Below, one piece after another: positions 1 through 6,695 of a stretch of DNA of 18,078 nucleotides (position 1 is its first letter; the number at the start of each line of letters is the position of its first letter). The stretch comes from Candidatus Micrarchaeota archaeon (lineage in GTDB: Archaea > Micrarchaeota > Micrarchaeia > Anstonellales > Bilamarchaeaceae): contig JAGVWJ010000028.1 of assembly GCA_018304385.1 (NCBI GenBank), positions 1-18,078 on the forward strand, written 5' to 3'. The translations under genes were made by a program, and so were the position numbers. The notes under the pieces were generated by a model. That model was not told where the DNA came from. It did not search any database and was given only the letters and a program-made list of their open reading frames with translations.

Positions 1-1254
1 TATCGCTATCCATATTCCAATCTCTCTAAGTTCTAGAAAATAAGCAAATATCATTATCGCAGGTATGCCAATTACAAAAAATCTAAGAAATGCAAACATA
101 AGGGATAAATGCGCTTTAGCCAAACCTTGTAAAACCGAGCCAGATATTATAGCTACTGCGGTTGCTGCATATGCGATTGCAGTAATTCTCAAGTAATAAG
201 ATGTACCAACAATTACCTCTTTATCCGTTGTGAATATTCCAGCTAAATTATCTGCGAATATAATTACTAGCAATATTGATGCTGTTAGAAATTTTATAGA
301 ATATTCTATCGCCTTTTTATAAATTTCCATAACTCGCTCTATTTTTTTAGCTCCGAAATTTTGGCCAACAAGAGGAACAACAGCGGTTGCAATGCCTATA
401 GCAGGTAGAATAACCAATTGGTCAACTCTCGTGCCTATGCCAAAAACTGTGATTGCATTTATCCCAAAATCGCTTACGAATTTGGTTATTATTAAAAATC
501 CAAGCGAGACGGATGCATGTTGTATTGTTACGGGTATTGCCTGGAATGATATTTTTATCCATGTGTTTATATTCGGTATTATGTTAAAGGCAAGCAAATC
601 TCTTTTTAGTACCTGGTAAAATAAAACTAGTGTTACAATTATCTGTGTTATTACTGTAGCAAGCGCAACACCTGCAACACCCATTGCAGGAAACCCAAAC
701 CAACCATACATAAACAACGGATCTAGGAATATATTAAGAAAAAAACCAAGGACTAGCGCATAACCAAATGTTTTTGTATCGCCTACTGAATTTAGAACTC
801 CGTTTAGAGCCATGGTTAAAAAGAAAAATATTAAACCATAATATATTACATTCATGTACTCTACTGCCAATATATTTAGCTCACCTTTTGCACCAATTAC
901 ATCAAATACTGATTCAGAAGTAGCAACTCCAATAATTCCTGCAATGATAGATAAAAATATTGTGAAAAAGATACTTTGCATTGCAATATTCTTTGCCTGT
1001 TCAATATTCTTCTCGCCACGCGCCTTTGCTGCTAGTGCGTTTGCAGCTATACCTAATCCCATTCCAATAGAGAGAATTAGAAAATATATTGGAAAAGATA
1101 TGGATACAGCTGCGAATGCAGTCTTAGAGAGCTGGCCCACATAATAAGCGTCAGTAGCATTATACATTGCTTGGAAGAATAATCCTATTGCTGCAGGCAA
1201 AGCCATTTTTTTAATTAGCTCTGGAATTGAACCTTCTGTGAGATCAGGTTTCAT
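1..1254 (-). CDS. MATE family efflux transporter (3' end runs off the window; absent from the ORF track)
   Basis: Manual translation from ATG at 1254: MKPDLTEGSIPELIKKMALPAAIGLFFQAMYNATDAYYVGQLSKTAFAAVSISFP...GDTKTFGYALVLGFFLNIFLDPLFMYGWFGFPAMGVAGVALATVITQ...LVGQNFGAKKIERV. These are typical MATE motifs (DLTEG, N-I-x-LDPLF, G-V-x-G-x-A-L-A-T, GQNxGA). The stretches I translated are open and no stop is reached before position 1. Confidence 0.93.
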   Translation of the reverse strand, partial: MKPDLTEGSIPELIKKMALPAAIGLFFQAMYNATDAYYVGQLSKTAFAAVSISFPIYFLILSIGMGLGIAANALAAKARGEKNIEQAKNIAMQSIFFTIFLSIIAGIIGVATSESVFDVIGAKGELNILAVEYMNVIYYGLIFFFLTMALNGVLNSVGDTKTFGYALVLGFFLNIFLDPLFMYGWFGFPAMGVAGVALATVITQIIVTLVLFYQVLKRDLLAFNIIPNINTWIKISFQAIPVTIQHASVSLGFLIITKFVSDFGINAITVFGIGTRVDQLVILPAIGIATAVVPLVGQNFGAKKIERVMEIYKKAIEYSIKFLTASILLVIIFADNLAGIFTTDKEVIVGTSYYLRITAIAYAATAVAIISGSVLQGLAKAHLSLMFAFLRFFVIGIPAIMIFAYFLELREIGIWIAI

Positions 1255-1278
1255 GTTATCCTTTCCCTATAAATACTC

Positions 1279-1298
1279 TTTATAAATTATATTATAAA
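1279..1298. promoter_or_regulatory. Candidate archaeal TATA boxes in the divergent MATE/TPR intergenic region
   Basis: TTTATAAA at 1279-1286 and TTATAAA at 1292-1298 lie between two divergent starts. The region is AT-rich, so the call is weak. Confidence 0.4.
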
Positions 1299-1318
1299 TC
1301 TATTAATATGGTGATAAT

Positions 1319-1900
1319 ATCGCAAGTTCCAAAGCTGTTGTTTATTTTATAGATGGTCGTGCAAATATGGATAAAGGGGATTATAAAGGTGCAATTCAAT
1401 GCTTTGACAAGGCAATTGAGTTAGACCCAACAGTAGCACAACAATTCAACCTTAGGGGCTATTCTAAAAATGCTCTAAAAGATTATAATGGCGCGATAGA
1501 GGACTATACAAAAGCCATTGAATTGAATCCGTCCTACGCTAAAGCATACAATAATAGAGGTATGTCTAAAATTGGAGTAAGGCAATTTGAAGAAGCTATA
1601 AATGACCTTGACAAATCAATTGAACTAGATCCTTCCTACTCTAAGGCTTATAATAATAGAGGGATGGCTAAATTTAATATGGGCAATTACAAAGATGCAG
1701 TAAGAGATTTTTCTAAAGCCATTGAACTTGATGCTAGTTATGTCAATGCTTATTACAATCGAGCATTTGCGTTAATGAGATTGCAGGAATATAAAGCTGC
1801 AATTTTAGATTTTAATAAGCTAATCGAATTAGATCCAAATCTTGCACCTGGGGTTGGTCCACTTATAAAAGAAACAGAAGAAAAAATTAAAAGAAAATAA
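1319..1900 (+). CDS. Tetratricopeptide repeat protein, 5 TPRs (first ATG at 1367; frame and SD point to 1319)
   Basis: 34-aa repeats such as AKAYNNRGMSKIGVRQFEEAINDLDKSIELDPSY. Helix A of the first repeat (AVVYFIDGRAN) is encoded in frame upstream of ATG 1367, and GGTGAT at 1310-1315 precedes ATC at 1319. Confidence 0.88.
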   Translation: MASSKAVVYFIDGRANMDKGDYKGAIQCFDKAIELDPTVAQQFNLRGYSKNALKDYNGAIEDYTKAIELNPSYAKAYNNRGMSKIGVRQFEEAINDLDKSIELDPSYSKAYNNRGMAKFNMGNYKDAVRDFSKAIELDASYVNAYYNRAFALMRLQEYKAAILDFNKLIELDPNLAPGVGPLIKETEEKIKRK

Positions 1901-1903
1901 AAA

Positions 1904-3931
1904 TTACTGGTCCAAGAAGAACTGTGGAGTAGGTGGATCTGGTTTATCTCCTTTTCTTTCACGAGTCTGTTTAACTATTTTTAGCAATAATTCTCTTGGT
2001 ACTAGCTCGTAACCAGCATACTCTTGATACCATATTGCTCTGCCTTGTGTTACACCACGTAGATCATTACTGAAACCAAACATTTCTGCAACTGGTAAAA
2101 CAGTTGTAATCGATGCATTTTCTCCTTCTTGCTGCATATCAAGTAGTTGACCACGTCTACCATTGGTCATGTTGATTACATCTCCCGCGTAATCCTGTAA
2201 TGTATTAATAAGTACTTTTTGTTTTGGTTCGAGCATTTGCACGCCGGCAATAAGCATTGCTGCGTATATTGGATTTTTGGTTGTAGGAATCATTTGTGCT
2301 GGGCCACGATGTATATTGTCTTCATGAAGTACTGCATCATCTAATGTTACTTTTACACCAGTTACCTTTTCTTTAGCAAGTGGTCCTTTATTCATTGCCT
2401 CTTCAAATCCTTGTATCATAAGTTCTTCTATTTCATTAAGATACTGTATACCTTTTGTTCCATTAACAAGCATATTTCCTTTGTAAATATGGTAAATATT
2501 TCTTACTTCGTTTCTTTCCATGCCCAATTCAACAAGCTTTTCCCATAATTCCTTTCTAGGTTTTCCTTCTGGGATTTCTCCTTCATCCATTGCCTTTAAT
2601 ACTGCAGGTAGAACTGGTTCTACAATAAATTTAAGCTTATTATGCTTATTTGGAGATTTTCCTTCTATTGGCCCTGCCTTTCCAGTAATAGTTTCTCTGT
2701 AAACAACTAATGGCGGAGATGTCACTATTGGCACTTTCTTTTCATTTACTATTTTATATTCTATTATCTCTAAATGCAATTCACCATTTCCACTCATTAA
2801 GTGCTCTCCAGTTTCTTGATTTAGTTCGATTTTTATTGTTGGATCTTCTTTTGAAATACTTCTTAACGCATCAATTAATTTTGGAAGGTCTTTTTGGTCT
2901 TTTGCTTCTATACTTTTAGTAATAACCGGTTCGCTGTAGTGTTTTATCTGTTCGAATGGCTCAATTGGTTCGCTGCTTAATGTTTCACCAACATAAACAT
3001 CCTTTACTTCCCCAGCGTGTTCATCATAAACTATACCGAAGACTACTCCTACTACCATGCCTTTTGCATCGCATGCAAGCATTGTTTTTCCATGCTCAGT
3101 GCTAACATCACCATTTTTCCATAATACCGGGATTCTATATTGTTGTGCAGTTTTTGGGCTTGGGAGATTTACAATAATCATTTCTAGTAATACTTCATCT
3201 AGCGGACTCTTTTCAACAAGATACTTGTGATCACCTGCGATACACTTATCATAAATATCCTTGAATGAAATATTGAACTTTTTCATCGAATTTATTGATA
3301 GCGCCCATTTGTTGAACGCAGTTCCGAATGCAACGTTTCCTTTGTTTACTTCGATCATCCATAGGTCTTTTTTATCAGCTGGTGCATTTGCTTCGATAAT
3401 TTTGTTAACCTGTGTTATAATTTTTATGAATCTATCCTGCATTTGTTTTGAGTCAAGTTTTAATTCGTTGATGAGCCTGTCGATTTTATTGATAAATAGA
3501 ATTGGTCTCGCTCTTTCTTTCAATGCCTGTCTAAGATTCGTTTCTGTCTGAGGCATAACGCCTTCTACGCTGTCTATTACAAGGCATACACCATCTACTG
3601 CGCGCATCGCTCTTACGACATGGAAACCAAAGTCTACATGTCCAGGGGTATCAATTAAATTAATAAGATAGTCTTTACCATGGAAGTTGAAACCAAGAGA
3701 AATATTTGCTGATTTAATAGTAATTCCTCTTGCCTGTTCTTGCGCATCAAAATCCATGACCCGTTGTTCGCCAGCGAGTTCTTTGCTGATTAAGCCTGCG
3801 CGCGCTACGAGCGAGTCTGTAAGTGTGGTTTTGCCATGATCTACATGCGCAACTATTGCAACATTCCTTACTTGATCAGCATTATCCATTAATCTTTGAA
3901 CTTCTTCAACTACAAATTCCTTTCTAACCAT
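1904..3931 (-). CDS. fusA: Archaeal translation elongation factor 2 (aEF-2) with an apparent in-frame deletion in domain II
   Basis: Motifs AHVDHGKTT, RGITI, DTPGHVDF, NKID and the diphthamide loop HEDNIHRGPAQ. Start moved to ATG 3931 because GGTGAT lies 6 nt upstream (3938-3943), giving 675 aa. Confidence 0.96.
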   Translation of the reverse strand: MVRKEFVVEEVQRLMDNADQVRNVAIVAHVDHGKTTLTDSLVARAGLISKELAGEQRVMDFDAQEQARGITIKSANISLGFNFHGKDYLINLIDTPGHVDFGFHVVRAMRAVDGVCLVIDSVEGVMPQTETNLRQALKERARPILFINKIDRLINELKLDSKQMQDRFIKIITQVNKIIEANAPADKKDLWMIEVNKGNVAFGTAFNKWALSINSMKKFNISFKDIYDKCIAGDHKYLVEKSPLDEVLLEMIIVNLPSPKTAQQYRIPVLWKNGDVSTEHGKTMLACDAKGMVVGVVFGIVYDEHAGEVKDVYVGETLSSEPIEPFEQIKHYSEPVITKSIEAKDQKDLPKLIDALRSISKEDPTIKIELNQETGEHLMSGNGELHLEIIEYKIVNEKKVPIVTSPPLVVYRETITGKAGPIEGKSPNKHNKLKFIVEPVLPAVLKAMDEGEIPEGKPRKELWEKLVELGMERNEVRNIYHIYKGNMLVNGTKGIQYLNEIEELMIQGFEEAMNKGPLAKEKVTGVKVTLDDAVLHEDNIHRGPAQMIPTTKNPIYAAMLIAGVQMLEPKQKVLINTLQDYAGDVINMTNGRRGQLLDMQQEGENASITTVLPVAEMFGFSNDLRGVTQGRAIWYQEYAGYELVPRELLLKIVKQTRERKGDKPDPPTPQFFLDQ

Positions 3932-4011
3932 GTTTATATCACCGGCTCTAAACAAATAGAATTTTTCCTAACTAAGACTAAAATTAGGTAATATTAATTA
4001 TGTAGAAAAGA

Positions 4012-4049: not shown

Positions 4050-4547
4050 TTACAAAGAAACAGCCACACTACGCGCTGCTCGAGCTGCTGGTTTAGTCGC
4101 TGGAGTTCGTGCTGCCTGCATACGCCTTAAAAGCGCATATCCTTCGCCCATACTGCTCCATGTAAATAAATGTAATTGATCTGGTGAGCCAGTAGTTTTT
4201 CTTTGTAATTTGCCGCAATCTATTAATGCTTGTTCTGCTTTTTCTTTAACTCCTTGACTTTCATCAGTTCTCATTGATCTTCTTAAAACAGCAATTGTAT
4301 GTTCTGGTATTAGAACAAGATATTTAGCAGCCCTACCTATTGCTTCTGCACAGCGTTCTCTTACATACCCATCTTGATCGCTAAGTGCATTTGTTAATGC
4401 TGCAATTGCTGGTTCAGATTGAACCTTACCATAATTTATAGAAGTACATAATGCTTTTGCTGCAACTCTTCTATGATTTACATCATTACTTTCCAGTAAA
4501 GCAATAGCATTACTTAATTTTTGGTCTGTGTCTATTATACCAATCAT
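4050..4547 (-). CDS. HEAT-repeat protein
   Basis: HEAT-like units LESNDVNHRRVAAKAL, LSDQDGYVRERCAEAIG and DESQGVKEKAEQAL, followed by an Ala/Arg/Pro-rich basic tail. Confidence 0.75.
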   Translation of the reverse strand: MIGIIDTDQKLSNAIALLESNDVNHRRVAAKALCTSINYGKVQSEPAIAALTNALSDQDGYVRERCAEAIGRAAKYLVLIPEHTIAVLRRSMRTDESQGVKEKAEQALIDCGKLQRKTTGSPDQLHLFTWSSMGEGYALLRRMQAARTPATKPAARAARSVAVSL

Positions 4548-4549
4548 AT

Positions 4550-5152
4550 TTATCCTACCCTTGCTACTGCACGTTTTGGTGCTGCACCAGCAACATCTCG
4601 AGCGGGTAGCCTTTCTGTTCTAACCTCTCTTGCATCTTTAGCATTCAAAATTTGCGTAGCCATTTCTCTTACTCTATGAGGCGTATCTTTTTCAGTTTTA
4701 TATATACCTAATTTTTCTACTATTTCTCCTGTTAGTTTATCCCCACCAGCTGCATTTATCAGTGCATCTAATGCCTTTTTTATATTGCGCATATCTGAAT
4801 CATAGTGTATAATTTCTAATAGAAACTCTTGCGCCCTTTCTCTTACCCAACCTTTACTATCATCTGCTTTTTGATCTAGGGCTAATATAACTATCGCATC
4901 TAAAGTAGTATTACTTATTGCTATCTTAGAATAAGCCATTCTTATTGCTTCAACGCAGCGTTCTCTAACATAAACATCAGAATCATTTGCTGCTTTATCT
5001 AATATTACTGGTATTGCTAGTTCAAATCCTATTGTTTGGTATCTATTAATATAGCTTAATTGTCTTCCTGCCTCTCTTCTTTCAGCTACATCTTCACTTT
5101 GCAATTGCTGCATTGTAGCATCTAACTGTTCAGGATTTTCAATTCTGTTCAT
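4550..5152 (-). CDS. HEAT-repeat protein, paralog of 4050-4547
   Basis: Units LQSEDVAERREAGRQL, DSDVYVRERCVEAI and SKGWVRERAQEFL. Start chosen at ATG 5152 (GAGGT 7 nt upstream); the ORF-track start at 5293 overlaps uS7. Confidence 0.75.
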   Translation of the reverse strand: MNRIENPEQLDATMQQLQSEDVAERREAGRQLSYINRYQTIGFELAIPVILDKAANDSDVYVRERCVEAIRMAYSKIAISNTTLDAIVILALDQKADDSKGWVRERAQEFLLEIIHYDSDMRNIKKALDALINAAGGDKLTGEIVEKLGIYKTEKDTPHRVREMATQILNAKDAREVRTERLPARDVAGAAPKRAVARVG

Positions 5153-5258
5153 GTGTGATACCTCTCTTTTAAATTTATATAGTACATTCTGACTGGTCAA
5201 AATCAAATACACGTAATTATATTTATATGCACAAGTGTTTATAAACCTATGTAATACA

Positions 5259-5867
5259 CTATCTTGCACTTCGTGCCATTCTCTCTGTTTCATCCCGCTT
5301 TTTCATTGCGTAGCTGTTCTGTTGGTCTCCCTTTCCAGTAAATATCAGTTCATGAGCAAGGCTTTGTGACATACTCTTGCCCTTGTTAAAGCTTCCCATA
5401 ATTGCAGCTAATGTTATATTTCTAAGTGCCATGTCTAATCTGCGTGTTGCTGATAAATCAACTGCTATCTGATAACTTACGCCACCATATTGCACGCGTG
5501 TAGTATCCTCTCTCGGTGCTGAGAATTCTAATGCCTTTACAAGCACTTGTACTGGGTTTTCTTTTGTTTGTTCTGCGACAATATCAAATGCCTTTTCAAC
5601 AATTTTCAATGCCTTTAGTTTTTTGCCCTGCATTCTGCCATGCGTGCGAATTACCTTACCAGATGTTTTCTCTCCTGTTCCACCGCGCATTAGCTTGTTC
5701 GCTAGGCGTTCGACAACATTGAGATTTATCTTTCCCAATGGTTTCTTTGCATGCCTTCCAAACGTATGCGGCACAGTTATTCCTTTGAAAGATACTGTTT
5801 GTGCTAAGCTTTTATCTTTTATTTGAATATTTTCAAGATCATACTTTCCGAATAGTTTTTCTGTCAT
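5259..5867 (-). CDS. rpsG: 30S ribosomal protein uS7 (archaeal type)
   Basis: Motifs VVERLANKLMR, NPVQVLVKALE, APREDTTRVQYGG, AVDLSATRRLD and ERMARSAR; lies directly downstream of uS12. Start may be ATG 5867 or GTG 5876. Confidence 0.96.
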   Translation of the reverse strand: MTEKLFGKYDLENIQIKDKSLAQTVSFKGITVPHTFGRHAKKPLGKINLNVVERLANKLMRGGTGEKTSGKVIRTHGRMQGKKLKALKIVEKAFDIVAEQTKENPVQVLVKALEFSAPREDTTRVQYGGVSYQIAVDLSATRRLDMALRNITLAAIMGSFNKGKSMSQSLAHELIFTGKGDQQNSYAMKKRDETERMARSAR

Positions 5868-5892
5868 ATTACTCACAACCCATTACCCATAA

Positions 5893-6321
5893 CTATCGTT
5901 TCGCTTTCTCCTTCCTTCCTTTTCTAAGCATCTGTAAATCAATATTGTTTACTGCTACTACTTTGTAGCGGACACCAGGGATTGAACCCATTTGACCACG
6001 TTGCGAACCGCCCAAGCCTGCTATAGTTATCTCATCATGTTCATCAATAAATGTAATTGCCTTATCACGAACTGCGTGTGCGGTAACTATCTTACCATTT
6101 TTAATAAGCTGAACCTTTACGCATTTAATTAATCCAGAGTGTGGCTGCTTTTGCTCAAGTACTATCTTTTCTAATACAATTCCTCTTGCTTGCGGCCCAC
6201 CTTCTAATGGATCGAACTTATTCTTTAATCTAAGCGTTCTTCTTTTCCACTTTTTACTTAGCCATCGCTGACCCTTTCGCTTTCGCACCAAATTGCGTCC
6301 TGCAAACTCTCCATTAGCCAT
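5893..6321 (-). CDS. rpsL: 30S ribosomal protein uS12 (archaeal/eukaryal type)
   Basis: Motifs [36 protein letters not shown] and [16 protein letters not shown] at 6331-6336 precedes ATG 6321; the ORF-track GTG at 6333 lies inside the SD. Confidence 0.96.
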
Positions 6322-6369
6322 CGACTTTTGCACCTCTTCAGCTCTAGCACTAATAGAATTCTAATATGA

Positions 6370-6514: not shown

Positions 6515-6695
6515 GCCTCATGGGGGGTTGGAACCCTCAAGGGGGCAGAGAAGTATGGCAGAGCGAGTGATCGAGAAAAATGTAATTTTTCGAGAGTTTT
6601 GTCCGAAAGGACAAACAGATTCGAGAGTTTTGTCCGAAAGGACAAACAGAAGCACGCACGTGCTGGAACGAGCGGGTCATTGCCCCCTTATGGGC
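6515..6695 (+). ncRNA. Candidate structured non-coding RNA or element of unknown family
   Basis: Closing stem GCC(U)CAU/AUGGGC; hairpin 6523-6538; 9-bp AAGGGGGCA/TGCCCCCTT helix; four further internal hairpins. Two G-U pairs favour the + strand. TTTAAAAA lies upstream at 6459-6466. Confidence 0.45.
6589..6650 (+). repeat. Perfect tandem duplication of a 31-nt unit containing a GAAA-tetraloop hairpin
   Basis: TTCGAGAGTTTTGTCCGAAAGGACAAACAGA occurs at 6589-6619 and 6620-6650; each copy forms TTTGTCC-GAAA-GGACAAA. Confidence 0.95.

Follow-up and report, generated by a model that had tools for sequence, protein, structure and literature searches.

A 165-nt in-frame gap in the elongation factor 2 gene of a Micrarchaeota metagenome-assembled genome is probably a local assembly error

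Introduction

Could an archaeon translate with an elongation factor 2 (EF-2) that lacks the β-barrel of domain II? The G domain and the domain II barrel form the core common to all translational GTPases (trGTPases; Atkinson 2015, PMC4342817; also PMC5207388). The question is raised by an 18,078-nt window, which is the whole stretch of DNA analysed here and the entire contig C65 of a Micrarchaeota (DPANN) metagenome-assembled genome (MAG, G000) of 1.53 Mb in 65 contigs, estimated as 89% complete. A preliminary description of this window had noticed that about 55 residues of domain II were missing in frame from its EF-2 gene, and had offered two options, namely a true truncated elongation factor or an in-frame misassembly or deletion. 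To our knowledge, a working EF-2 without the domain II barrel would be unprecedented, and the prior for a functional truncation is therefore very low. A true and tolerated deletion would break the rule that domain II is needed by every translational GTPase, and almost no room was left for that by the comparisons reported below. Coordinates without a contig name are window positions.

Results

The assembled EF-2 gene lacks most of domain II

The closest named homologues of the 675-aa product were EF-2 proteins of Candidatus Micrarchaeota from the Bilamarchaeaceae, and its best match in the PDB was the archaeal EF-2 5h7j (phmmer, E 4.5e-231). The length of 675 aa agreed with the open reading frame (Table 1), and the typical value of about 730 aa, against which the preliminary description had set it, agreed with the EF-2 lengths of relatives (~730-770 aa). 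An in-frame TTG at 3955 represents an alternative upstream start, from which the product would have 683 aa. The match to P. horikoshii EF-2 (5h7j) fell into two pieces, with query residues 2-311 aligned to 5-313 and query residues 309-670 aligned to 366-729, leaving ~52 residues of the 5h7j chain without counterpart. Pfam analysis detected GTP_EFTU, EFG_III, EFG_IV and EFG_C, with PF14492, PF03764 and PF00679 all over the cut-off, and detected neither GTP_EFTU_D2 (PF03144) nor EF-G_D2 (PF22042) in this protein. The G1-G4 motifs (AHVDHGKT, DTPGH and NKID) were kept, and the loop HEDNIHRGPAQ, the diphthamide acceptor at the tip of domain IV, aligned with the same loop of 5h7j and 6q2d; the diphthamide residue His541 (2309-2311) lies within the intact domain IV/V region. 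No frameshift or stop codon was found within the EF-2 frame of the window, and the earlier statement that the GTPase motifs, the diphthamide loop and the frame were intact was borne out.

Genes for S12 (5893-6333) and S7 (5259-5876) and then two HEAT-repeat genes precede EF-2, which places it at its str cluster position. The two HEAT-repeat genes occupy the interval from S7 to EF-2 (4050-5293) as an insertion. On the downstream side, EF-2 is separated from a MATE transporter gene by a TPR gene on the opposite strand (1367-1900). EF-2 is not followed by an EF-1alpha gene, for which the likely frame (439 aa) is located on contig C24.

Table 1 Coordinates of the EF-2 gene, its domains, the gap junction and the tandem duplications of the MAG
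Feature	Position	Strand	Remarks
EF-2 (aEF-2) gene	1904..3931	(-)	675 aa; ATG start; stop codon 1904-1906; only EF-2 gene in the MAG as assembled
G domain, intact	3164..3874	(-)	residues 20-256; PF00009, E 1.6e-54
Domain II remnant	2966..3064	(-)	about residues 290-322; left of the barrel: strand one, three residues of strand two, and the final strand
Junction of the 165-nt gap	3004..3007	(-)	coding strand GAAG-TA-AAGG; intact allele L030:10952-11116
Domain III, intact	2720..2935	(-)	residues 333-404; PF14492
Domains IV and V, intact	1988..2563	(-)	residues 457-562 (PF03764) and 566-648 (PF00679)
Exact 31-nt x 2.0 tandem duplication	6589..6650	.	unit TTCGAGAGTTTTGTCCGAAAGGACAAACAGA, with a hairpin inside; private to this assembly
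Eleven further duplications of the MAG	C1:375, C2:17454, C8:2169, C11:411, C11:10630, C12:53439, C14:394, C20:484, C31:396, C43:6167, C55:1334		

DNA alignment with two congeners and with contigs of the same strain showed that the EF-2 gene of the window lacks exactly 165 nt, or 55 codons, in frame, which makes the earlier estimate of about 55 residues exact. Across 3010-3001 the protein reads ...YDEHAGEV/KDVYVGET... (slashes mark the break). The sole microhomology between the two sides of the junction is the 2-nt TA at 3006-3005, and because it is common to both sides the break may be placed at 3007/3006, 3006/3005 or 3005/3004, a range that includes the position 3005/3004 proposed earlier. 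The cut falls inside a codon (GT/A), yet the frame is preserved. The two break sites of the intact allele are GGGGAAGTA/GCAGTTGT on the left and GTCGGATTA/AAGGATG on the right, and the sequence spanning the deletion in the window is GAAGTAAAGG. No N run, duplicated overlap or repeat of k-mer length was present at the junction. Repeat-mediated collapse was considered and rejected, since the nearby 8-nt repeat GCAGTTGT with a spacing of 150 predicts a 150-nt loss and a different sequence, not a loss of 165 nt. With homology of 2 nt only, and neither a fitting repeat nor a bulge-helix-bulge (BHB), the junction itself gives no positive clue to the mechanism.

The missing sequence, which the preliminary description had not found in the open reading frames of the window, was absent from the whole MAG as well: when the 165 nt, the 55 aa and the complete domain II were used as queries, blastn and tblastn returned chance-level matches only. 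Nor was there a second EF-2 in the MAG, as the protein search of G000 gave only distant GTPases.

Other assemblies of the same strain carry the intact gene

The 165 nt were present in every one of the 12 contigs obtained from other assemblies (ENA, Logan and JGI; 19 on record), with flanks 99.7-100% identical in DNA. The 55 residues are present in the proteins P0121 (738 aa from TTG; 17 contigs from ENA and Logan) and P0122 (one JGI contig), which fall in the same neighbouring 90% cluster and are 100% identical to the window protein on both sides of the gap. A third protein, P0002 (one contig), is the same as the window protein outside the gap except for four residues. For these three proteins 11 contigs (L028-L038) from at least ten different samples were fetched, and their DNA was 99.7-100% identical to window positions 1-3006. 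From 3005 on, four of the 11 matched without gaps at 100% over 2.2-3.5 kb, and the others differed by a few mismatches or spacer indels. The gene order S12-S7-HEAT-HEAT-EF-2 was identical throughout L028-L038. In a multiple alignment of ~7 kb, the 165 nt were found in all 11 same-strain contigs, with one SNP inside, and were absent from the window alone. The intact and the window genes share locus and flanks and are therefore allelic rather than paralogous. Relative to L030 the window EF-2 has no private substitution, and the multiple alignment revealed no other private difference in this gene; there is thus no sign of decay or adaptation. These comparisons show that the gap is private to this assembly and that an intact gene occupies the same locus in the same strain elsewhere.

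The truncated product was equally isolated in protein collections. Among ~15 billion proteins, it formed a cluster of one member from one contig; the junction occurred in no other protein, full-length or fragment, of a collection of 5.8 billion clusters, and an exact-sequence look-up gave no other contig. Exact-pattern scans for the junction in metagenome_contigs and genome_contigs returned zero matches, but these zeros carry no weight, as the intact-allele control also returned zero in metagenome_contigs despite a known JGI carrier.

Some variation among the same-strain contigs lies away from the junction. The spacer between S7 and the first HEAT-repeat gene (window 5203-5207) has a short allele in the window, L028, L033, L036 and L038 and an allele with 55 extra nt in L031, L032 and L035, and the scaffolds L029 and L030 have a 100-N gap exactly at this position. 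In L028 (ERZ4903185 k141_4151150), a cluster of five base changes (three G>T, one C>A and one C>G) at the equivalent of window 2972-2992, just 3' of the junction position, turns VGETLSS into FFETLRR, and three more are found at window 2548-2573. These substitutions look like errors of that MEGAHIT contig and are the reason why P0002 differs from P0121.

The lost segment is conserved among related genomes

A search of 30 related genomes, of which two share the genus, 16 the family and 12 the order, found the segment in every one; the query matched as two blocks with ~153 unmatched bases between them. Presence of the segment in all relatives and in reassemblies, which the preliminary description had named as grounds for refutation, is thus what was seen for these 30 genomes and for the 12 fetched contigs. 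Most relatives have a single open EF-2 frame of ~730-770 aa; in a few, a frameshift or contig break interrupts it. The congeners carrying the segment showed 95% and 83-89% amino-acid identity, the closest being G002, at 93-95% in protein. Both PF03144 and PF22042 were present in all 119 other listed homologues. Within the lost segment, an alignment of 58 Micrarchaeota EF-2s contained 14 invariant and many near-invariant positions.

The EF-2 gene of G004 (L007 = G004:C45, about 2545-2560) is split by the loss of 1 nt in a T run at PFEQ, just past domain II, and that of G008 (L013 = G008:C15, contig end) is cut by a contig break ~9 codons beyond the junction position. The troubles in G004, G008 and L028 lie close together, which suggests that a conserved stretch is hard to assemble in these communities. 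A trouble spot in domain II was nevertheless rejected as the cause of the 165-nt loss, as the errors in G004, G008 and L028 are of other kinds.

Structure prediction indicates that the domain II remnant would not fold

AlphaFold modelled the intact protein with a mean pLDDT of 81.8 from an alignment of 59 sequences; in this model, domain II consists of ten strands at residues 302-382, and the blocks covering it had pLDDT values of 71-94. The deletion (318-372 in the numbering of this model) takes seven of the ten strands whole and the greater part of an eighth. When the 675-aa protein was modelled, two 3-residue strands were all that was left of domain II, the other domains being unchanged; mean pLDDT over the blocks of residues 291-330 was 58, 28, 48 and 60, with residues 299-316 and 329-332 below 50. 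The predicted structures confirm that the remnant would be unable to form a barrel. Structure prediction of this kind cannot tell an artefact from a real allele.

Join errors occur elsewhere in the same MAG

An exact tandem duplication of 31 nt (6589-6650; Table 1) lies 3.6 kb from the EF-2 gap. Each of the seven other contigs covering this position has one copy, and contig C42 of the MAG begins with the same sequence. Abutting of two contig ends with their overlap unmerged is the classic cause of such an exact duplication; we interpret this one likewise, which makes it a second faulty join in contig C65. The duplication falls inside a candidate structured RNA of ~180 nt (6515-6695), whose true sequence is 31 nt shorter and has one hairpin instead of two.

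The MAG as a whole contains ten N runs of 4-94 nt, from which it follows that it was scaffolded with estimated gap sizes. It also contains twelve tandem duplications (21-88 nt), each an exact repeat in 2.0 copies, and in five cases the site is roughly 400 nt away from where a contig begins. Several of the eleven outside this window break reading frames, and at eight of the twelve an open frame becomes longer once one copy is dropped (for example, from 236 to 409, 705 to 814 and 197 to 289 codons). The duplications of 40 nt in C2, 41 nt in C11 and 67 nt in C12 are present as exactly one copy, within coding sequence, in the congener G002, and in the MAG these three break reading frames. All four duplications tested were therefore single-copy elsewhere (the 31 nt of C65 against seven contigs; C2, C11 and C12 against G002), and as artefacts they indicate that the pipeline of this MAG joined contigs at wrong offsets.

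Discussion

We consider it probable that the 165-nt gap arose as a local error in this single draft assembly and is not a biological feature of the organism. Of the two options raised by the preliminary description, misassembly or deletion is the one that stood, all 12 fetched contigs and all 30 relatives being intact at this place, and the true truncated EF-2 did not hold up. Most likely, a scaffolder or gap-closer would have abutted two contig ends, omitting 165 nt and writing no N, although we infer the exact route; a join across a positive true gap with no N written would yield exactly the picture seen in EF-2. As the best explanation of the sequence comparisons, the real EF-2 of the organism would be an ordinary protein that includes all of domain II and has 730 aa (738 aa from the upstream TTG). 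Several points count against misassembly: no N and no repeat long enough for de Bruijn-graph collapse mark the junction; the loss is exactly in frame, though chance alone gives this in one case of three; and the other errors demonstrated in the MAG are duplications, none a deletion. Furthermore, reads containing the junction are a prerequisite for a pure k-mer assembler, and such reads would indicate a real or chimeric molecule.

Alternatively, the assembler would have followed a real but rare, very recent defective EF-2 allele in the population of one sample, for example in a dying lineage or on one chromosome copy of a polyploid cell. This explanation is possible but unlikely. It draws on the 2-nt microhomology, typical of real deletions, on the lack of an N or a k-mer repeat, on the junction-spanning reads that k-mer assemblers normally require, and on flanks identical to the common allele, as a fresh mutation predicts; it is opposed by the absence of the junction from the other 12 contigs retrieved, which come from many samples of this population, by the exact-sequence look-up, which gave no further contig encoding the 675-aa product, by the proven join errors in the MAG, one of them 3.6 kb away, and by the lack of a complementing second copy in the MAG. 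That the deletion is a real allele of living Micrarchaeota, which would translate with a barrel-less EF-2 or be complemented by other chromosome copies or by the host, is very unlikely. For a functional EF-2 without the barrel, representing a reduced translocase of a genome-reduced DPANN symbiont, one could cite the kept frame, the intact G domain, domains III-V and diphthamide loop, and its standing as the sole EF-2 of an 89%-complete MAG. We nevertheless find it extremely improbable: the full gene exists in the same strain elsewhere, domain II is kept by all 30 relatives and the 119 other listed homologues, the lost segment has 14 residues invariant in the lineage, the remnant is unfolded in the AlphaFold model (pLDDT <50 at 299-316 and 329-332), and the G domain with domain II is the universal trGTPase core (PMC4342817). 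An origin at the RNA level, whereby the archaeal bulge-helix-bulge splicing endonuclease would have cut 165 nt from the mRNA and a read derived from cDNA or RNA would have been assembled, is barely conceivable, since a scan for bulge, 4-bp helix and bulge gave no candidate with cuts at matching offsets from both junctions, and the minimum-free-energy fold leaves the junctions unpaired.

If the gap is a local assembly error, it carries little weight as biology, as the organism would have an ordinary EF-2. Its practical value is that of a warning on the local accuracy of this MAG. Both a public protein database and a species-representative genome now contain a wrong 675-aa EF-2. Because EF-2 is often used as a phylogenetic marker, a hole of 55 columns can disturb alignments. 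With at least twelve gene-breaking duplications from unmerged overlaps, oddities of this MAG such as apparent frameshifts, split genes and the candidate RNA at 6515-6695 call for comparison with independent assemblies ahead of any interpretation.

For MAGs, Chen et al. (2020, Genome Res, PMC7111523) described local errors of this type and noted that incorrect gene sequences reach public databases through them. The present case resembles the errors described there in that the change is private to one assembly, that unmerged overlaps and N gaps occur in the same contig or MAG, and that the outcome is a wrong protein sequence in a public database. Unlike the usual faulty joins, the EF-2 junction has no N run or duplicated overlap, its sequence is missing rather than doubled, and the frame was kept by chance. 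As in archaeal EF-2 (P. horikoshii 5h7j/5h7l; Methanoperedens 6u45), the G domain, domains III-V, the diphthamide loop and the S12-S7-EF-2 neighbourhood are retained. In contrast to 5h7j, the window copy has no counterpart of residues 314-365, the core of the domain II β-barrel, and this is the segment that the same-strain assemblies possess.
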